Assembly: GCA_965219455.1 (NCBI GenBank)
Contig: OZ244744.1
Span: 608,001-672,000, forward strand
Length of the DNA: 64,000 bases
Direction: 5' to 3'
Source of the DNA: Candidatus Latescibacterota bacterium
GTDB lineage: Bacteria > Latescibacterota > UBA2968 > GCA-2709665
Shown here: in pieces, positions 52,905 through 64,000 of the stretch
How the letters are laid out: the number at the start of each line of letters is the position of its first letter
Position numbering within the stretch: position 1 is the stretch's first letter
Translations under genes and position numbers: made by a program
Notes under the pieces: model-generated
Database searches by the model: none
What the model was told of the DNA's origin: nothing
What the model saw: only the letters and a program-made list of their open reading frames with translations

Positions 52905-53720
52905 TCAGGCGACTTCAGGCCTCTGTTCGATGATCTCAACCTGGTCTTCGGGACTGTAGAAGTACGCGCCGGGGCGCCAGTCTCTGCCCAGATCCCCCAG
53001 CAGGCGGCGCTGTCTCGGTGTACATTTCGCCAGAACTTCCGTGCAGTGGCCGTTGAAGTCAAAGGTCCGGAAGCATTGCTGGCTATAACAGTAAATGAGT
53101 GTCTTCCGGGACCGTTTTGAGAGGTTGGGGGAAACGCCATGCCAGACGGCATGTGAAAAGACGGCCGCGTCTCCCGCTTCCGCGCAAAGCTGCACCGCGC
53201 CGGGCGTCTGGGCCGTTATGGCCAGGTCGCCCTCCGGGTAGGGTCGCAGATGGCTGCCGGGGAAGAGTGTGAAGTTGCCGCAGTCGGGTTTCTTGACGTC
53301 GGTGAGAAAGTACTGGATTTTGAGCTGAAGCGGCCAGCTTGTTTCGGTAACGCGAATATGGCGAAGTGCCTGGCCGCCGTCGGTGTGGATAAAACCTTTA
53401 TAGCCAGGATTCGGCGGACGCACAACGGCTTCGGCCATGCTGAGCTGGATATACGGGCCCATCAGTTCCAGAATAATGTCAAACGCGCCGGGATGGTCCA
53501 TAAGATGGATAAAAGCGTCGCCGTCCGGCAATACGTTTCTCCGGTCCAGGCCGGATTTCGGGTCGGCGTCGGCCTTGTTGAGGACAAAATTCCGATGCAG
53601 CCGGTCCACCTCCCGCCTCAGGTTTCCGGTTTCATCGGCTGAGAGGACACCCTTGAGCAGGATATACCCGTCTATCGCCCACTGCTGCTTCTGCTCCTCG
53701 GTCAATTTGCGCCGTTCCAT
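52905..53720 (-). CDS. Phytanoyl-CoA dioxygenase (PhyH) family protein
   Basis: DGYILLKGVL, HTD, PGSH and WHG...R. Confidence 0.88.
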   Translation of the reverse strand: MERRKLTEEQKQQWAIDGYILLKGVLSADETGNLRREVDRLHRNFVLNKADADPKSGLDRRNVLPDGDAFIHLMDHPGAFDIILELMGPYIQLSMAEAVVRPPNPGYKGFIHTDGGQALRHIRVTETSWPLQLKIQYFLTDVKKPDCGNFTLFPGSHLRPYPEGDLAITAQTPGAVQLCAEAGDAAVFSHAVWHGVSPNLSKRSRKTLIYCYSQQCFRTFDFNGHCTEVLAKCTPRQRRLLGDLGRDWRPGAYFYSPEDQVEIIEQRPEVA

Positions 53721-53801: not shown

Positions 53802-54620
53802 TCATGCGCTTGCCGAAAGCGACCGTTCCAGGTTGCAGCGAAGTTCGTTGGCGGCGTGCCGGGCAGCGTCCGCGAAGTCCCGCTCGGAAGAGGCGTAGAG
53901 CACGCTCCTGGACGCGTTGACAAGGAGCCCCCCGCCATTCCCGTCAACGCCGTACCGGATCACGGCGCCGGGGTCGCCCATCTGAGCGCCGACGCCGGGG
54001 ACCAGGATGGGAAGCCCTGGCGCGATGCTCCTGACCATGGCGAGTTCACGAACGTGAGTCGCGCCGACCACGAGGCCGCACGGGCCGGTGGCGGACCATT
54101 CAACCGCTTTTCTTGCAACGTGTTGATAGAAAGGTCCGTCCTGAGTGGAAAGCCGCTGGAAGTCTGCAGAGCCGGGGTTGGACGTCAAACACAGCAGAAA
54201 CGCGCAGCGGTCGCGGTAGTGGAGGAAGGGCGCCACGGCGTCTTTGCCCATCAGGGGGTTCACGGTGACCGCGTCGACGCCAAGCGTATCGTAAGCCATC
54301 TGTGCGTAACGGGCGGCGGAGTTGCCGATGTCCCCGGCTTTGAAATCGAGCAGAACGGGCGTCGCGTCGGGAATGGCGCGGATAACGTCCGCGAGGCTCT
54401 GCCATCCGGCCGCACCCAGCGCGCCGAAGAAGGCGAAGTTGGGTTTGTAGGCGCACACAAGGTCCTGCGTGGCGGAGACGATTTCCCTGAGAAAGGCCGA
54501 GACCGGGTTCGCGGTGCCCGTGAAATGCGCGGGCAGTCGTTTTGGATCGGGATCCAGGCCCACGCAGACCCGGCTGTTCCGGGTGTCGACGGCGTGGTGG
54601 AATTTCTCGAGAAAGCTCAC
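53802..54620 (-). CDS. pyrF: Orotidine-5'-phosphate decarboxylase (subfamily 2)
   Basis: CVGLDP, YKPN, DFKAGDIGNS, TSNPGS, VVGAT and PGVGAQ. Confidence 0.95.
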   Translation of the reverse strand: MSFLEKFHHAVDTRNSRVCVGLDPDPKRLPAHFTGTANPVSAFLREIVSATQDLVCAYKPNFAFFGALGAAGWQSLADVIRAIPDATPVLLDFKAGDIGNSAARYAQMAYDTLGVDAVTVNPLMGKDAVAPFLHYRDRCAFLLCLTSNPGSADFQRLSTQDGPFYQHVARKAVEWSATGPCGLVVGATHVRELAMVRSIAPGLPILVPGVGAQMGDPGAVIRYGVDGNGGGLLVNASRSVLYASSERDFADAARHAANELRCNLERSLSASA

Positions 54621-54650
54621 CCCTCGCTCCTGGAAGGGATTGGTATTCAA

Positions 54651-55058
54651 GCAAGCGGGCCTGTAAGCCGAGTTCTGTCGTCCGGCGCAGTGCGCCCGAC
54701 GGATGGCCATTTATCTGGGACGCCGGTTGCCCGGCGCCTCTACGCAGCCTACCCGAGCGTAATATTGAGACGGGCCGCCTCTTCGCTCCTATTTGGCCTT
54801 GCTCCGGATGGGGTTTACCGTGCCGCTCCCGTCTCCGGGAGCGCGGTGGGCTCTTACCCCACCGTTTCACCCTTGCCCGCAACGAAACCGTAGTTTCGCC
54901 CGCTGGCGGTCTGTTCTCTGTGGCACTTTCCTTCGGGTTGCCCCGCCTGGGAGTTACCCAGCATCCTGCCCTGTGGAGCTCGGACTTTCCTCACCCATAA
55001 CAGCCCGGATGGACTCTTTCAACGGGCTGTTATGGGCGCGGCCATCCGGCCCGCTTAC
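54651..55058 (-). ncRNA. rnpB: RNase P RNA, bacterial type A
   Basis: Minus strand GAGGAAAGTCC, AGTGCCACAG, GGGTGAAACGG, GGTAAACCCC...GAGCAAG and ACAGAACTCGGCTTA; complementary P1 ends. Confidence 0.96.
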
Positions 55059-55090
55059 CTGAATTGTGGAACCGTGAACCGCTCATCGGC

Positions 55091-56340: not shown

Positions 56341-56417
56341 TGGTGGGCGATACTGGACTCGAACCAGTGACCTCTGGTATGTGAAACCAGCGCTCTAACC
56401 AGCTGAGCTAATCGCCC
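56341..56417 (-). tRNA. tRNA-Val(CAC)
   Basis: gggcgattagctcag...ctggt-ttCACat-accag...ggttcgagtcc...cgcccacca. Confidence 0.96.
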
Positions 56418-56650: not shown

Positions 56651-56725
56651 GACCCCGTCGTTCAGAGGTTAGGACACCGGGTTTTCATCCCGGCAACGGG
56701 GGTTCGATTCCCCTCGGGGTCACCA
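56651..56725 (+). tRNA. tRNA-Glu(TTC)
   Basis: gaccccg...ccggg-ttTTCat-cccgg...ggttcgattcc...cggggtcacca. Confidence 0.96.
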
Positions 56726-57226: not shown

Positions 57227-59098
57227 ATGATCAATTCAAACCGTGATCGCCATAGAACCACTTGCCTGGCACGGCTACGGACCCGGTTCAACGGCCTCGG
57301 CTACCTGATTGGAATTCTCAGGCGGAACGCGGCATTCGAATCCACGTTGCTCGTTCTGAGTAACGTTGTGTCCGGATTCGCCACACCAGTCATCGTGTGG
57401 GGGATGACGGGGCTTGTCGATGTCGTGAGCGACAGTCCGACTGACGGGTGGCCCGGCGTCCTTCCGTGGCTTGCAGCGTTCTCGGCTGCTCTGCTTATAC
57501 GGAGCGTCAACACGGAAAGCTCCAGGTATCTCGCCTCGGTAATATATCAACGGGTCGGTGGCAGAATCCAACGTGACGTAGCCAGTAAGTCGGTCAGCGT
57601 TCCGCTGAGTGCCTTCGAAAGCCGTGCGTACTATGACAAGCTGGAAACGGGTAAGCGGGCGATTGGCCCACATCTCGTTGACGTCTTGAATGAGCTCGGT
57701 TCTCTGGTATCGACTGCCGTCAGTGTGGCAGGCTTGCTGGTGCTTTTTGTTCACGCCCATTGGGCCCTGGCCGTTGTCCTTTTTGTGACGATGATCGTCA
57801 ATACGATCGTAGGCGCGAGGAACATGGGCCGGTTCGCTAGAGTCAACTACAAGAGTTCGCCGAAACGCCAGGAAATCAACTATTGGGCTGCGCTTCTGTG
57901 CAGCCGCCGCGCTGCCACCGAAGTTCGCGCGTATCAATTGGGCGAATATTTGTTGGGGTTCTGGCGACGCGCCTTTGGCCGTTACGTCGCTGACATCAGG
58001 AATGCTCGCTTTCGGCTGGCCGTTATTCAATTGTTGAGTGCCTGCGCATACGACCTCATCATTTGGACGAACAGTCTGGCGCTCGTGGTCGTGGCTTCGA
58101 GGGGAACCATAAGCGTAGGTACGTTAGTGGCTTTACTCTATGCCACCGGCCGCTTCAGCGAATTGGTGCGTTCGGCTTCGTATGGCATTTCTCAATTGGT
58201 AGAACACCTGATGCAACTGCGACACTTGCGCGAGTTTCTCGCGCTGCCAGACGAAGGTGCGGCGCCCGTTAACAAACTGCGGCCACCTCGCCCCTTGCAT
58301 CACGGAATCCGTTTTCACGGTGTGAGTTTTCGCTATCCGGGTTCGGTCCGCCCTGTCATCACCGATCTCAATATGACACTATCGCCAGGAGACCGGGTCG
58401 CCCTTGTAGGTGAGAATGGCGCGGGCAAGAGCACGATTGTGCGATTGCTGCTCGGATTGTACCAGCCGACGCAAGGCCGGATTACCGTTGACGGCGTCGA
58501 TCTCGCGGAGATGGACCTGGCGGCCTGGCGCCTGATAGCAACGGCTGTATTTCAGGATTTCATGCGTTATCCACTTACGGTTTGTGAAAATATCGGGGTC
58601 GGGCGAATTTCGTTGCTTGAAGATGGAGACCTGGGTGCCGCTGCATCTTCCGAAATCTTAGAAGCAGCACGGAGGAGTGGCGCTCATAGCTTTGTAAAAG
58701 AACTGCCTTTAAGGTTCCGGACCCTATTGAGCAAAGAATTCGACGACGGAGTCGAACTATCAACGGGCCAATGGCAACGATTAGCGATGGCTCGAGCATA
58801 CGTTCGCAAAAACCGCGAAATCGTCGTCCTGGACGAGCCGACGTCGGCATTGGACCCCAAGACAGAGGTGCAAATATATCAGCAGTTCGGATCTGTAGTC
58901 AAAGGACGATGTACCGTCTTTATCTCCCATCGATTGGGATCGGCTCGCCTCGCCAACCGAATCCTTGTCCTGAAGGAAGGTCGCCTTGTGGAGGAGGGAA
59001 CACACCAGGCATTGCTCAAGACCGACGGCGAATACGCCCGGATGTACTACCTTCAGGCGAAATGGTACACCGGGGAAGATGGAGGGAACGTGGGATGA
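57227..59098 (+). CDS. ABC exporter, fused TMD-NBD (peptide/multidrug type)
   Basis: TM domain, GENGAGKST, VFQDF, LSTGQWQR, DEPT and ISHR. Confidence 0.9.
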   Translation: MINSNRDRHRTTCLARLRTRFNGLGYLIGILRRNAAFESTLLVLSNVVSGFATPVIVWGMTGLVDVVSDSPTDGWPGVLPWLAAFSAALLIRSVNTESSRYLASVIYQRVGGRIQRDVASKSVSVPLSAFESRAYYDKLETGKRAIGPHLVDVLNELGSLVSTAVSVAGLLVLFVHAHWALAVVLFVTMIVNTIVGARNMGRFARVNYKSSPKRQEINYWAALLCSRRAATEVRAYQLGEYLLGFWRRAFGRYVADIRNARFRLAVIQLLSACAYDLIIWTNSLALVVVASRGTISVGTLVALLYATGRFSELVRSASYGISQLVEHLMQLRHLREFLALPDEGAAPVNKLRPPRPLHHGIRFHGVSFRYPGSVRPVITDLNMTLSPGDRVALVGENGAGKSTIVRLLLGLYQPTQGRITVDGVDLAEMDLAAWRLIATAVFQDFMRYPLTVCENIGVGRISLLEDGDLGAAASSEILEAARRSGAHSFVKELPLRFRTLLSKEFDDGVELSTGQWQRLAMARAYVRKNREIVVLDEPTSALDPKTEVQIYQQFGSVVKGRCTVFISHRLGSARLANRILVLKEGRLVEEGTHQALLKTDGEYARMYYLQAKWYTGEDGGNVG

Positions 59099-60897
59099 AA
59101 GCGCGTGCAATCGGACCGGAAAGACAGAAACGACAGCGTCTACTTTACTTGCGTCGGCTGATTTGGACATTCTTCGTATTCGACAGCAAGGCCGCAATTA
59201 GCCTTTTGGTACTGAATGGTTCAAGGGGACTATTCGTCACTGCCCACGTATATCTTGTATATCGGTTCATTGAGGCCGCGGCGGGAGTTGTAAGAGGCGA
59301 AATCCAATTTACCAATGCCATCCTGTGGGCCGTAGCCCTTGTCGGGCTGAACCTGCTGCAACACGGCATTAATCTGATCTCCAATACCACAGCCGATCGC
59401 TTTCAGGAGCGTCTCCGTGGCCATATTGAGGAACGATGCTATCGGAAAGTTCAAACGGTTCCCCTGGCGCAACTGGAAACGGCGGCATTCCACGACCAGT
59501 TGCAGCGCGCGCGGCGCGGCATTGAGCGGCGGCTATTCAGCACAATGTCTTTCATGTGGCGAAGCGTTAGCGACGTCGTAGCGCTTGCGTCCCTCCTGTT
59601 TTACCTGGCGAGTTTTCACTGGGCGTTACCGCTGATCCTTGCCGTTGGAACGAGTCCGGGTGTTTTCCTTCGCGAACGCGTCAACAGAGCGCGCTATTTG
59701 ATGGTACGAGACCTAACGCCCGACGAGCGACGGTTTGACGTCTACCACGAAATATTGTCGGGGCGCAACGCAGCGGCCGAAATCCGTATGTTCGGCTTCG
59801 GTGCCTGGCTGGTCGATTGTGCCGATGCATTGTGGAGAAAGCTTTCCGGCAGGCGCCTGCGCCTTGCGAAGAAGGAGGCGGGGCTCGGACTCGTATCGGA
59901 TGGTCTGAACACTGTGACCTATATTGCAGCGGTGATCTTCAGCTTGGGACTCCTCTTCGCAGGTCGAGCCACCATCGGGGCCTATGCCGCCTTTTTCTAT
60001 GCTATCGAACAGCTACAGGCACACTACCGCAGCCTCGTCTGGGGCGCATCGATCATCTACAATGACCTGCGCTATGTACAGGACTATTTCGAGTTTGTCG
60101 ATCGTCCAACGGAAGAATCGCCTAAAAGGTGCCGTATCCCAAGCACGCTGCAGGCCGGGATCGTCCTGCAGGACGTCTCGTTCATTTACCCTGGGAGCGA
60201 TATTCCGGCGCTTTCCAACCTCAATCTCAGCATTCGACCGGGCGAACGCATTGCCGTCGTGGGCGAGAACGGTGCCGGCAAGAGCACCCTGGTCAAGCTG
60301 ATTCTGGGTCTTTTTGATCCGACAAACGGGCGGATTCTGGTAGATGGGATCGATCTCCGGGAAGTCGCTCCAAACGAATGGCTCCGGCGCACGGGTGTGG
60401 TGTTTCAGGATTACAACCGCTATGAACTCACAGTAAGGGAGAATATAGCCTGCGGCTGGATGGAAGGGGAATCAGCAGCGGTTGAAGAGGCGGCCGCGAA
60501 GAGTGGCGCCGACCAGGTGGCGGAAACCCTGACTCGCGGATTGGAAACCCCGCTGGGCAAGACGTATCGACAAGGCACGGAGCTTTCCGTTGGCCAATGG
60601 CAGAAGCTCGCAATCGCCCGGGCATATATGCGCCCGGCGGACATCCTGGTTCTCGACGAGCCAGCCTCCGCACTCGATGCCAGGGCGGAAGCGGATGTAT
60701 ACAGTCACTTCGCCCGGATCGCACAAGAGCGTACTGTACTCCTGATCTCCCATCGCCTCGGCTCCTGCAGGCTTGCAGATCGAATCCTGTTGTTGGGAGA
60801 TGGTCGGTTGGTCGAGGATGGGAGTCATCGGGAGCTTGTAGCCATGAACGGTCAGTACGCTGAACTGTACCGCAATCAGGCTCGATGGTATCGTTAG
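59095..60897 (+). CDS. ABC exporter, fused TMD-NBD (second subunit)
   Basis: ATGA overlap with the previous gene; GENGAGKST, LSVGQWQK, DEPAS and ISHR. Confidence 0.9.
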   Translation: MKARAIGPERQKRQRLLYLRRLIWTFFVFDSKAAISLLVLNGSRGLFVTAHVYLVYRFIEAAAGVVRGEIQFTNAILWAVALVGLNLLQHGINLISNTTADRFQERLRGHIEERCYRKVQTVPLAQLETAAFHDQLQRARRGIERRLFSTMSFMWRSVSDVVALASLLFYLASFHWALPLILAVGTSPGVFLRERVNRARYLMVRDLTPDERRFDVYHEILSGRNAAAEIRMFGFGAWLVDCADALWRKLSGRRLRLAKKEAGLGLVSDGLNTVTYIAAVIFSLGLLFAGRATIGAYAAFFYAIEQLQAHYRSLVWGASIIYNDLRYVQDYFEFVDRPTEESPKRCRIPSTLQAGIVLQDVSFIYPGSDIPALSNLNLSIRPGERIAVVGENGAGKSTLVKLILGLFDPTNGRILVDGIDLREVAPNEWLRRTGVVFQDYNRYELTVRENIACGWMEGESAAVEEAAAKSGADQVAETLTRGLETPLGKTYRQGTELSVGQWQKLAIARAYMRPADILVLDEPASALDARAEADVYSHFARIAQERTVLLISHRLGSCRLADRILLLGDGRLVEDGSHRELVAMNGQYAELYRNQARWYR

Positions 60898-61218
60898 TGG
60901 GACAATTACCTCGCACTGGTATGTTTCGCTGCTTGCCAGGGAAGCCCAACGCCTTGAAGGCCTCCTTCAGAAACGGAACGACCACGGACGCACGGTTGGA
61001 GGAACCAAACTACGAAGAATTGGTCGACGACCGAGGACGGGATGTCACAGACCTGGTCGATGTACGCTAAGGGCAAGAAGACGATGTCTCACACCATGAC
61101 CTACCGTCGCGTGCAATAGACGAACCGTATTGCGACGCATCGCGGTCGCCGTGTCGGATTGGAGCGCCGCGCCCGAAAGGTACGACTTCCGCCGACACGG
61201 CGAAATCCCGATACACCC

Positions 61219-62607
61219 TCAATCCACAATACCGCAGGCCGCGGCCGACAGTTCGTCGTAGTAGTGCACGTAGGTTACTCCGTCGACGACCAGGCGGGCG
61301 GCATGGGGCAGGTCCTCTTCCCAGGTCATCGCCTCGCCCCAATTGTGCGGAGGGGCATCGCGCTTGCCCCAGCGGTTGCCGTTGTAACGGCGGTACAGCA
61401 CCGTGCGTCCCGCCCGGGTGATATAGGCTTCGATTACTTGTCCGCGCTCGGTGGCCTCTTTCTGGTTTCCGATGATTTCGAAGACGCGCAAGCAGGTGAA
61501 ATGCCGCCGGCCGATCTGCACGTCGAACACCCCGGCCCCGGTGATTTGGGCGGCTCCTGCCTGTGTGGCGAAGGCGCCGTCGCCTAGGGGCCGAAGGCCG
61601 CCGCGGTCCTCGACCAGCCGCGGCGTGCTGTCCCAATCCACGTAAAACCCTTCGTCGAGAAACGTCTCCAGTTCCCGTGTTCCGTCGGGGCGCAGCGATT
61701 CCACGGCGATCCACTCCACCTCGTCGTCGGCCAGATGCCCCCAGACTCGGCTCTTCTGTGCGCGGGAAGGCTTTGCGCCAATCATCTCCTCCTCCACTTC
61801 CACCTCGACACAGGGCCGTCCATGGATCACCGCCGGACGGCGTGCGGTCATCCGGACGGTTTCGGAGAGCTTCCAAGGCGCGCCGCCTTCTGTCGGCGGC
61901 TCATACAAACCCCAGGCTGCACTGTCACCCACCTCGGGCTGGATGAACCACCAGGCCATTTCCTTGAAATCGATACGGAACGGCTTCTCGTTGCTCGCCC
62001 GAATGCGTAATTCGGGCATCTGCGTCGGAAAGGCTTGTTTTGGTGTATCCATTTCGGTTCTCCTTTTCGTCGGGGTGATTCCCAGTACGTTCCGGATTCG
62101 GTCGCGGCCGTAAGAGAGGCGGCGCTTGACCGTGCCGTCGGGACAGCGGTGTCGGGCAGCGATTTCGGCAATGCTCAAACCATCGAGGTAAAACGCCCGC
62201 AACGCGGCCCGTTCACGCTCGGGCACATCGTCCATGGCCTTTACGACGGCGTTTGCGGCTTCGCGACGTCGGAATTGCGCGATGCCAAGGCGGTTGACCA
62301 GGGGCGCCAGGGCTTCGCTCCCGACGTACAGCTCCCGGCGCTGGGGCGACCGGAAGTAATCGCGGCAGCGGTTACGTGCCACCTGCAGCAACCATGGACG
62401 CATGTCGCGGGGAGTATCGCGGCGCAGGCCGCGCCAGGCGTGGACCAGGGTTTCCTGCAACACGTCCTGCACCTGTTCGCCGGAACCGATCCGGGAGCGG
62501 ATCAGCCCCGCCATGACGCGCTCGTAGCGTCGGATAAGGGTAACAAATGCGGCCTCGTTGCCCTCCCGCACCAGCTTCGCCAATTGTTGGTCGCCTTGAT
62601 TGGTCAT
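61219..62607 (-). CDS. ECF sigma factor with a ~275-aa C-terminal domain
   Basis: Sigma2 (DVLQETLVHAW, WLLQVARNRCRD) and sigma4 (LSIAEIA...GTVKRRLSYGR), followed by the extension. Confidence 0.9.
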   Translation of the reverse strand: MTNQGDQQLAKLVREGNEAAFVTLIRRYERVMAGLIRSRIGSGEQVQDVLQETLVHAWRGLRRDTPRDMRPWLLQVARNRCRDYFRSPQRRELYVGSEALAPLVNRLGIAQFRRREAANAVVKAMDDVPERERAALRAFYLDGLSIAEIAARHRCPDGTVKRRLSYGRDRIRNVLGITPTKRRTEMDTPKQAFPTQMPELRIRASNEKPFRIDFKEMAWWFIQPEVGDSAAWGLYEPPTEGGAPWKLSETVRMTARRPAVIHGRPCVEVEVEEEMIGAKPSRAQKSRVWGHLADDEVEWIAVESLRPDGTRELETFLDEGFYVDWDSTPRLVEDRGGLRPLGDGAFATQAGAAQITGAGVFDVQIGRRHFTCLRVFEIIGNQKEATERGQVIEAYITRAGRTVLYRRYNGNRWGKRDAPPHNWGEAMTWEEDLPHAARLVVDGVTYVHYYDELSAAACGIVD

Positions 62608-62648
62608 TCGAAAACCGCTGTATTATGTGCTGCACACTTCAAACGCAG

Positions 62649-63470
62649 TCACTCGCATGCCTCCGAGCGAGCAGGTTGGAGAGCAGATTCCGTGATTGTG
62701 TCATGAGCCCGCCCGGAGCAGTCATGATGCACGTACACCGTGTCGTTGATGACGATTCGGCGATTGTCCGGATACTTGACGACCAGGTCATCTTTGCGGA
62801 AAAACCTCCCATCGTATCGTCTAAAGAATACGGTCCGCCCTCCGCGTTCAATGAAGGCTTCTACAAGTTCGCCGCCATTAGGTTCAGAAAGGTCGGCGTC
62901 CAAAACGCGGAGACAACAGAAAGTATTACCGCCGATCATTACATCGTAGGTCCCCTCAACTATCCCTGTACCATTGGCAGTTTTATACGAGCCATCGGGT
63001 TGGCGTCGGTAGCGACCATCATCAACGATTCGACGGCTCATCTTTCCCCCCCAGTTCTCCTCAAACCATTTGTCACCCTCGGTTTCGAAAACCCGTCTTC
63101 CATCCAGTGTCTTGACGACGGAAAGCCACCTGGCCTGCTTTTCGTCCAGCAGTGCGTACATGAGCCCAGGGTTAAAATCCGTCGGCCAATCGTCCCGAGA
63201 CGACCATTCTCTCAATCGGAGTTCGACGCAGTCGACGTCCCGGATCTTTGCAGGCGCAGTGGACACGATCTCCTTTACCCCGGTTAACTCCAACGTGTCG
63301 GATTCATAGGATGCCCAAGAGCATCGTTCCCCCAGTCTCGGGATGGCGAACCACCACTGCAACTCCGGGCAATCGATCTCGTCTATCTTCTCAGAACTCT
63401 TGAGTATTGTAATATCGGGCCTTGTAAGGGGAAACGGATGATTTGCTATCGGATCGTTTTCGAGTATCAT
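62649..63470 (-). CDS. Hypothetical protein, stand-alone homologue of the ECF C-terminal domain
   Basis: Colinear similarity to the ECF extension (ELQWWF, CVE, FCCLRV, EAFIERGGRTVFFRRY, YVH); SD ggag. Confidence 0.82.
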   Translation of the reverse strand: MILENDPIANHPFPLTRPDITILKSSEKIDEIDCPELQWWFAIPRLGERCSWASYESDTLELTGVKEIVSTAPAKIRDVDCVELRLREWSSRDDWPTDFNPGLMYALLDEKQARWLSVVKTLDGRRVFETEGDKWFEENWGGKMSRRIVDDGRYRRQPDGSYKTANGTGIVEGTYDVMIGGNTFCCLRVLDADLSEPNGGELVEAFIERGGRTVFFRRYDGRFFRKDDLVVKYPDNRRIVINDTVYVHHDCSGRAHDTITESALQPARSEACE

Positions 63471-63644
63471 TGAGTTCTCCCCCAGATAACTTGGCGAAAC
63501 ATCAAGTCACTTCACAAGTTGCGAGATTTGTATCTGTGGCATGGCACATAACGTCCATTCGATCGCCTTTCCTCTACCCTGCAAGGCGCACGCCGACGGA
63601 TAAAGGTTCACATTTAAGGACAGATTTCCGACATTACGCGTACT

Positions 63645-63833
63645 TTGGGAAAGTCGGTGTGTGCCTCGAAGCCGGTCACCCCGTTCGACGATTTCGACAG
63701 GCTGTCCAATACGGCGGATTCCCGTATCACGGAACAACAAAAACGCAACCGTCAGCTACTGAAGACGTTGATGGAAGAGAACGGTTTTGTAAATTGCGAC
63801 AAGGAATGGTGGCACTACACGCTTTTAATTTAA
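63645..63833 (+). pseudogene. D-Ala-D-Ala dipeptidase (VanX/DdpX, M15D) C-terminal remnant
   Basis: PFDDF...NRQLLKTLMEENGFVN..KEWWHY. The N-terminal SxHxxGxAxD motif was not found. Confidence 0.75.
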
Positions 63834-63983
63834 CCCAATCCGGATACGTGCTTCAATTTCCGGTTAAAGTGAAAGAATGAGGGAATTCCGTTTACACTTC
63901 GAGCGGGTCGACAGGCGGGACTTGCGCTTCTTCGATGGAAGACCTCGCTGACGTTCGATCGGATTTAACGGAGGAACATCGTC

Positions 63984-64000
63984 ATGGAAAACGTTGCAGG
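63984..64000 (+). CDS. Possible start of a gene running off the window
   Basis: GGAGG followed by ATG GAA AAC; only 5 codons visible. Confidence 0.3.

Follow-up and report, generated by a model that had tools for sequence, protein, structure and literature searches.

Sigma factors of the extracytoplasmic function (ECF) type with built-in sensors are the least understood branch of bacterial signaling. The precedents for regulation by a C-terminal extension are the ECF41 and ECF42 sigma factors, which are controlled in cis, and 15 of the 26 extension-bearing ECF groups are counted as unstudied in a review (PMC8999054). In ECF41, represented by SigJ of M. tuberculosis and Ecf41 of B. licheniformis, the extension is a fused SnoaL-like domain of an enzyme-like fold that is thought to sense a small molecule (PMC8999054, PMC7826278); in ECF42 it is long (~200 amino acids, aa) and essential (PMC8999054). 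Here we analyze a two-gene locus in a 64,000-nucleotide (nt) stretch of a Candidatus Latescibacterota genome (assembly GCA_965219455.1, contig OZ244744.1, positions 608,001 to 672,000 of the forward strand), called the window below. An ECF sigma factor gene, whose product ends in a domain that appears to belong to no described family, directly follows a gene for a free-standing paralog of this domain. We consider it rather likely that this sigma factor activates its own expression and contains a new type of built-in sensor, and that the free paralog was captured in this lineage. The two genes and their domains are as follows; coordinates are window positions and the operon lies on the minus strand, so that upstream corresponds to higher numbers.

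61219-62607 (-): ECF sigma factor gene, 462 aa, with C-terminal extension (open reading frame [ORF], Pfam, NCBIfam, homologs)
62338-62538 (-): sigma-70 region 2, residues 24-90 (Sigma70_r2 PF04542, E 4.3e-13)
62092-62250 (-): sigma-70 region 4, residues 120-172 (Sigma70_r4_2 PF08281, E 5.7e-11; PF04545, E 1.3e-9)
61222-62040 (-): C-terminal domain, residues 190-462, predicted to be all-beta and of an apparently undescribed family (AlphaFold2 model beta-rich)
62649-63470 (-): free-standing paralog of this domain, 273 aa (ORF, BLASTP, homologs, AlphaFold2 model)

The sigma factor and its extension

The 462-aa protein carries sigma regions 2 and 4 only, the architecture of the ECF (group 4) sigma-70 factors, to which it belongs. 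It matches the ECF superfamily model TIGR02937 of NCBIfam with 79.3 bits (cut-off 42.9); only generic ECF models pass, the specific NCBIfam sigma models all scoring far below their cut-offs. The extension behind region 4 (~270 aa, where more than 50 aa count as an extension) is kept in 275 homologs and in 50%-identity representatives as low as 24% identity. No family was recognized for it in Pfam, in NCBIfam, or in a profile search of PDB sequences; beta-amylase, the only PDB candidate from the domain profile search, matched at chance level (E about 1) and was rejected as a relative. The free 273-aa protein likewise has no significant Pfam match. BLASTP aligns residues 190-449 of the sigma factor with residues 10-249 of the free protein (78/262 identical positions, 30%; E = 3e-31 in this single pairwise comparison). 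The initial annotation, which proposed an ECF sigma factor fused to an uncharacterized domain beside a free paralog of that domain, is thus upheld for both ORFs and for their homology, and all the motif pairs that it quoted fall within this alignment. It was also right that neither protein has transmembrane segments (maximal 19-residue Kyte-Doolittle means 0.85 and 0.97). Its statement that no anti-sigma gene is adjacent holds in part: neither an anti-sigma Pfam domain nor a conserved neighbor was found in 18 loci, but a 174-aa predicted membrane protein of no family, encoded divergently ~500 bp upstream, or an anti-sigma factor of an unrecognized type may be a partner.

The extension had further been described as unlike the SnoaL domain of ECF41 and the TPR repeats of ECF42, which agrees with its failure to match any known family. 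Neither protein has a SnoaL match in Pfam at E<=1, the extension has no TPR match in Pfam, and its model lacks helical repeats. The sigma factor resembles ECF41 in being soluble, in having no recognizable anti-sigma gene beside it, and in its conserved promoters (PMC8999054, PMC7826278). However, its extension is about 270 aa long, modeled as all-beta, and without SnoaL, whereas that of ECF41 is ~120 aa and alpha+beta, and the SnoaL-like extensions of ECF41, ECF56, ECF294, and ECF295 span ~120-150 aa. There is also no conserved target gene next door, and any contact between the linker and the extension is putative here. The locus is reminiscent of ECF42 in that the domain of the neighboring YCII-related partner of ECF42 also occurs both free and ECF-fused (PMC8999054); it differs in having no TPR repeats and in that the free neighbor is a paralog of the extension itself, present in a minority of genomes. 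The -35 element of the promoter discussed below, TGAACCTTT, is that described for ECF33 of the EcfQ type in the supplementary text of PMC7826278. Unlike the locus studied here, ECF33 is proteobacterial, has a zinc-finger anti-sigma gene at position +1, and has no extension; here the -10 element is CGCCTT, the extension comprises 270 aa, and the downstream gene encodes a convergent ATP-binding cassette (ABC) exporter. A group with such an extension was not found in the available text and supplementary text of the ECF re-classification paper, its tables lying outside this search, and literature on ECF factors with C-terminal extensions and LolA-like folds yielded no description. It is possible that a numbered ECF group already covers this sigma core.

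The structural check proposed in the initial annotation gave a confident beta-rich model of the free domain and no PDB match at the Foldseek threshold used. AlphaFold2 predicts the free protein (46-row alignment) to be almost all-beta (pLDDT 86, pTM 0.86), and in the full-length sigma fusion the extension is again beta-rich, with pLDDT mostly 80-95. With the free-domain model Foldseek found nothing in PDB at E<=1e-3, the best match being the YmcC-like 3fzx (E 1.9e-3). A Foldseek-independent structure search (VIA) gave matches at Z 5-7, the range which the tool ascribes to a common arrangement: a functionally uncharacterized Thermus protein, ependymin-related proteins, LolA/LolB, the N-domains of RseB/MucB, and beta-barrel membrane proteins. 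These matches align 124-168 residues, and for the LolA-like fold the root-mean-square deviation is 3.8-5.5 A. By protein atlas features the closest entries are unnamed clusters, plus a DUF3108-like one at 0.90; neither protein matches DUF3108 or DUF3108_like (PF11306, PF21347) in Pfam at E<=1. The best structural matches of the model are thus open beta-barrels of the LolA/LolB/RseB/MucB/ependymin kind and the YmcC/DUF3108-like fold. We read them as a hint that the domain is an open barrel resembling lipid or ligand carriers, short of membership in any of these families. The majority of these folds accommodate hydrophobic or amphipathic ligands, and RseB and MucB act in a sigma-E pathway. The protein studied here differs from them in having no sequence match, in being cytoplasmic, and in that its invariant residues are mostly charged or aromatic. 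In a joint alignment of free and fused domains, 12 positions are invariant (in free-protein numbering, F13, P14, P18, W39, W40, Y55, R146, C186, R188, G211, R212, and R217), and the Arg, Trp, Tyr, and Cys residues among them suggest a polar or anionic ligand. The free clade has the motifs DDGRY and DCxGxAHD, absent from fused domains; the fused clade has an insert, PPHNWGE...EEDLP, that is missing in free ones.

Free and fused forms of the domain

Of the proteins retrieved by word-indexed searches, 275 have the length of a sigma fusion and 144 that of the free form. The few that bear a name are annotated no more specifically than "RNA polymerase sigma factor" or "hypothetical protein", and come from metagenome-assembled genomes (MAGs) labeled Gemmatimonadota, Latescibacteria/Latescibacterota, Poribacteria, and Caldilineaceae. 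A profile built from 32 free and fused domains, compared with 1.84 billion representatives of 50%-identity clusters, matched 556 clusters at E<=1e-3 and 379 at E<=1e-10. Pfam was run on 25 of 150 listed clusters: nine chosen as full fusions, all of them sigma2 plus sigma4; three free ones, all without a Pfam match; and 13 deliberately chosen for their odd length, which comprised ten sigma-factor fragments, two proteins without a Pfam match, and one full 592-aa sigma fusion. Among the members scanned, the domain occurs solely alone or behind an ECF sigma factor. The window's genome encodes the domain a third time, in a 439-aa sigma fusion with 35% identity to the first fusion and 4 Mb away from it; at this locus (L049 7766-9085, about 4.64 Mb) the neighbors are a GNAT gene, a metallophosphoesterase, two glyoxalase-type genes, and a Fic gene.

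On a maximum-likelihood tree of the 32 domains, 16 free and 16 fused ones are parted by a single branch with 100/100 support; hence the 273-aa neighbor is not a recent local duplicate. Free and fused domains thus represent old, separate lineages. Between the window and the operon loci of the same genus, protein identity is 82-84% for the free protein, 83-84% for the sigma cores, and 68-70% for whole fusions, and the free protein evolves more slowly than the sigma fusion. Horizontal movement of the free gene is hinted at by a copy from another family of the phylum, which shows 87% protein and 90% DNA identity, the latter limited to the ORF.

The two forms are distributed largely apart. A search with the free-domain profile across 168 genomes of the phylum gave a match in 43. 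A free-type copy is present in nine of these. It adjoins the fused gene in five genomes, the window's included, all from the window's genus (5/15 genomes of that genus); in three genomes it is located elsewhere, and one 97%-complete genome has it without any fused gene. Of the remaining 34, 28 have an uninterrupted fused frame of at least 457 aa and no free copy, and the other six hold fragments, copies with stops, or short matches of doubtful status. Among named genomes, 168 stretches encode a relative of the domain; the counts given for named loci refer to the best 80, about 66 of which are from Ca. Poribacteria. In 75 of the 80 the free gene occurs without a fused gene, three have the operon form, and two (one Poribacteria and one Brocadiaceae MAG) have the fused gene only. 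Around the 75 free-only loci, a sigma-core search found only two weak ECF-like matches within 4 kb. The free and fused genes are therefore no conserved two-gene system. The co-occurrence survey called for by the initial annotation has a divided outcome, adjacency being confined to five genomes of one genus and most loci having one form alone. For the same reasons, namely the separate clades, the adjacency in only five genomes, and the 28 fused-only genomes, the sensor/effector pair that it proposed is not a general arrangement, although in the window the partner is a true homolog and very probably shares the transcript and promoter.

Two loci show other arrangements. In a Poribacteria MAG (L095 1615-2154), a distant ECF-like sigma gene, 21% identical, precedes an ORF of 206 aa that belongs to the domain family; the two are located ~1.5 kb upstream of a free gene and may be a split or divergent fusion. 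In another genome (G037, L042 7926-12059), two fused paralogs, 58% and 54% identical to that of the window, are 1.3 kb apart with a GNAT gene between them.

The promoter and the 944-bp block

All 21 fused-only loci examined have the promoter TGAACCTTT-N13-CGCCTT, 38-59 nt before the start codon, with two deviating sites (one CGCCCT, one GAACTTTT); they include three genes just 38-43% identical to the sigma gene of the window. In the window, the promoter stands 113 nt before the free gene and not directly before the sigma gene. Scanned with a position weight matrix from the 21 sites, the 5.84-Mb genome shows a single match scoring above 12 bits, which lies at window positions 63578-63613 (32.6 bits). 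The strict pattern has one extra genome match, inside an antisense ORF, which we take as chance, and loosened patterns give 31 and 69 matches, inseparable from chance. In 1.28 Mb around the 80 named loci there are five motif matches, all five before sigma-bearing genes and none before free-only genes; two of them are in other phyla (the Poribacteria and Brocadiaceae MAGs). Immediately ahead of the start of the second fused paralog in the window's genome stands a similar site, GAACCTTC-N13-CGCCAT. Conserved promoters of the ECF type in front of sigma genes are an accepted sign of positive autoregulation (PMC7826278). Since such a promoter precedes the fused sigma genes, we infer that the sigma factor itself reads TGAACCTTT-N13-CGCCTT and activates its own gene.

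What separates this promoter from the sigma ORF can be seen by comparing (blastn) the window with G058, a genome of the same genus without the free gene. The features concerned and the three alignment blocks are listed below.

63583-63610 (-): ECF-type promoter, TGAACCTTT at 63602-63610, 13-nt spacer, CGCCTT at 63583-63588
63556-63562 (-): TCGAATG repeat, promoter-side copy, holding the ancestral start codon 63556-63558 (overlap of alignments, sequence reading)
62612-63555 (-): 944-bp block with the free gene, a ~85-nt leader, and a 3' flank (blastn against G058)
62605-62611 (-): TCGAATG repeat, ORF-side copy, holding the present ECF start codon 62605-62607
64000-63692: aligned with G058, vanX-remnant region, 89% identity
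63615-63556: aligned with G058, promoter, ribosome-binding site, and start codon, 95% identity
62611-61035: aligned with G058, sigma ORF, 77% identity

The 944 bp from 63555 to 62612 are missing from G058, so that the adjacency in the window results from an insertion or deletion of this size between promoter and ORF. The flanking alignments overlap by 7 nt in G058, which corresponds to the presence of TCGAATG at both block ends in the window. The ancestral start codon now begins an 18-codon remnant ORF, and the present sigma ORF starts at the second TCGAATG, without an obvious Shine-Dalgarno sequence. The same junction is found in three of the four other operon-type genomes; in the exception, G052, the upstream region is rearranged and the motif is absent. 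G047, itself an operon-type genome, additionally has a solitary copy of the same ~940-bp unit on a different contig (matching window 63560-62631 at 83% identity). In contigs from one metagenome run, 62604 is joined to 63556, with 7 letters ambiguous, which is the block-less form; the short side of this join covers just 23 letters, so that it is weak, and a relative is its probable source. Because the promoter is next to the ORF in all other lineages, the block would most simply be a derived insertion. Its presence is patchy on the domain tree (window and G055 yes, G058 and G054 no), so that the block must have been lost precisely between the 7-bp repeats or inserted more than once. No terminal inverted repeats were seen at the block ends (an 8-nt match by eye is too short to count), and no recombinase gene was found near the block in the Pfam scans of neighbors.

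As the block sits between the promoter with its start codon and the sigma ORF, the free gene is now the first in the autoregulated transcript. The two ORFs are on the same strand, 41 bp apart, and a pattern scan found no terminator-like site in this gap; for this reason the free gene and the sigma factor very probably share a transcript and a promoter in the window's genome. A single 227-nt contig (61086-61312, depth 2.2) from RNA-library run X20 is too little to show transcription of the operon, and contigs of this kind do not reveal transcript starts.

Some smaller features of the region may be added. The block leader contains a 14-nt near-palindrome (63535-63548), perfect in the stand-alone copy of G047, that may be an operator. 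A conserved leader or riboswitch before free genes was considered and rejected, the leader being common to close relatives only and not across phyla, and Rfam gave no match over 57300-64000. The 76-bp stretch 63616-63691, between the vanX remnant and the promoter, is missing in G058 and is skipped by contigs of two metagenome runs at depth 9-11.

Neighboring genes and possible functions

The remaining features around the operon are the following.

63645-63833 (+): remnant of a vanX-like D-Ala-D-Ala dipeptidase gene, 62 aa, divergent from the operon (PF01427)
60981-60996 (-): terminator-like hairpin 3' of the ECF gene (pattern scan, weak: one site against 3.0 expected from shuffles)
57227-59098 and 59095-60897 (+): two ABC exporter genes (Pfam)

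Over 18 loci of the phylum the neighbors of the fused gene vary, including GNAT, PhyH, glyoxalase-type, AHSA1, periplasmic binding, amidohydrolase, and toxin-antitoxin genes; the genes were called by crude ORF-picking rules, so that small neighbors may be wrong. Free copies away from the sigma factor adjoin an APH-type kinase (twice), an ANT(6)-like nucleotidyltransferase, a GNAT gene, and once an ECF42-like sigma-TPR gene. For instance, in G060, which has no fused form of the domain, the free paralog is located between an APH-family kinase and an ECF42-like sigma factor with TPR, all on one strand (L037 6456-10112), and in G101 it is directly 3' of, and on the same strand as, a "streptomycin adenylyltransferase" gene (PF04439, E 1e-72; L035 8056-9905).

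The most frequent neighbor of the free gene in named genomes is of another kind. A ~274-aa protein of the PhyH family (PF05721, 26.9 bits against a cut-off of 22) is encoded within 4 kb in 50 of the 80 named loci. In 47 of them a PhyH-like cluster member is the next gene on the same strand (42 upstream and five downstream of the free gene), with gaps of 61-583 nt; the outer flanks of these loci differ (a TPR giant, MR_MLE, DUF6785, sulfatase, and amidohydrolase/Rieske sets). PhyH-family enzymes act on diverse substrates. Several of them, one from Poribacteria included, are reported to have 2'-O-methyl-nucleoside demethylase activity (PMC12709175, from 2025); the partner found here may be a different enzyme. 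PhyH genes are unusually abundant in Poribacteria (PMC3909097). We rejected two further relations: that the poribacterial PhyH partner is a hidden paralog of the domain (hhalign probability 0.2%), and that PhyH genes near fused sigma genes are its orthologs, since the likeness is at superfamily level (19-24% identity). A PhyH-family gene is also present in the window, at 52905-53717 (-) and thus 8 kb from the operon; with 24% identity to the PhyH partner of Poribacteria it is not an ortholog.

These data suggest the following model. By analogy with ECF41 and ECF42, the fused domain would act in cis as a sensor and regulator of the sigma factor, probably by binding a small cytoplasmic molecule. 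The free form would bind or convert a related molecule on its own, and in Poribacteria may have a PhyH-type Fe(II)/2-oxoglutarate dioxygenase as its partner. With the free gene captured behind the sigma promoter, this lineage would possess a sigma-controlled free copy able to remove or buffer the inducer. A more far-reaching version, in which the free beta-barrel is a hitherto overlooked metabolite-handling module of sponge-associated and related bacteria that acts with PhyH on a polar or anionic small molecule, the fused copy senses the same class of molecule, and the captured free gene clears or buffers the inducer in place of an anti-sigma factor, seems to us rather unlikely as a whole.

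Several observations weigh against the model of a self-activating sensor-bearing sigma factor with a captured paralog. The full-length AlphaFold2 model has a pTM of 0.57 and low confidence in both linkers, so that the extension is not confidently packed on the sigma core, and the predicted complex of the core (1-185) with the extension (190-462) scored 0.00, uninformative either way. The linker between sigma2 and sigma4 is conserved among close relatives only and loses this conservation across the wider family, for which reason we rejected it as a sign of linker-extension contact. The fold matches lie in the range of a common arrangement, so ligand binding is a suggestion of the structural model. 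The promoter motif is matched only at the operon itself, the 31 loose matches being inseparable from chance; the regulon may be limited to the operon alone or include targets with weaker sites. The PhyH pairing comes mostly from one phylum, rich in PhyH genes, and from related genomes that are not independent. Precise deletion between the 7-bp repeats would give the same pattern as insertion, and the block is patchy on the genus tree.

The adjacency could also be a neutral accident, in which a mobile or recombining block landed behind the promoter and the two genes share nothing but the ancestry of the domain. The free form without a sigma factor in 75 of the 80 named loci, the 28 intact fused genes without a free copy, the own leader and solitary occurrence of the block, and the widely varying neighbors of the fused gene would all be expected in this case. 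On the other hand, the junction is kept in four of the five operon-type species of the genus (not in G052), with the free gene intact and 82-84% identical; displacement of the ribosome-binding site from the sigma gene should carry a cost, unless it is tolerated or brings a benefit; and a chance landing beside a paralogous domain is improbable in itself. We regard a neutral origin as somewhat unlikely, though deserving real weight. A free paralog acting in trans, as an anti-sigma-like or competing module that binds the sigma core or the fused domain and exerts negative feedback, is in our view improbable. It would fit the position of the free gene at the head of the autoregulated operon in the window's genus, the fold common to both domains, and the rule that ECF regulators and sigma factors are co-transcribed (PMC7826278), but a free partner is lacking for the majority of fused genes, the usual neighbor of the free form is a dioxygenase and not a sigma factor, and the free-only motifs together with the lack of the fused-type insert argue for a different activity.

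The initial annotation correctly listed the two ABC exporters and the vanX remnant and took them as a hint at antibiotic resistance. A sigma factor that senses an antibiotic, with a free partner that modifies this drug and works together with the exporters and vanX, would agree with the small-molecule-modifying genes that often adjoin members of the family (GNAT, APH, ANT(6)-like, glyoxalase/bleomycin-resistance type, and the vanX remnant itself). However, the exporters are on the opposite strand, converge on the sigma gene, lie in a stretch of lower GC content (0.55-0.56) just after tRNA-Val and tRNA-Glu genes, and are missing at the corresponding place in four loci of the same genus (G054, G058, G055, and G052). 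The vanX gene is a C-terminal fragment (Peptidase_M15, PF01427, E 3.7e-11, covering only profile positions 136-184 of 199), and the copy at the same place in G058 (80 aa) is likewise a fragment. None of the neighbors in question is conserved across loci, and the promoter motif was found neither before the exporters and the vanX remnant nor before any other such neighbor. The hint is thus not sustained, and we consider this explanation highly improbable. The ABC pair (57227-60897) is possibly a small acquired island. The tRNA genes are tRNA-Val(CAC) at 56341-56417 (-) and tRNA-Glu(TTC) at 56651-56725 (+); further along, class A RNase P RNA is encoded at 54648-55057 (-) (307.7 bits), and several long "ORFs" over 54542-55062 are this gene translated.

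The system described here is a real, well-conserved, and uncharacterized variant of the extension-regulated ECF sigma factors, with a lineage-specific capture of the free paralog. The family offers a new extension fold with hundreds of members, and its clean, conserved, and apparently private promoter would be suited to the construction of orthogonal genetic switches. Genomes with and without the free paralog under the sigma promoter provide a natural experiment within one genus, and the pairing of the free form with PhyH in Poribacteria gives a handle for the ligand search.

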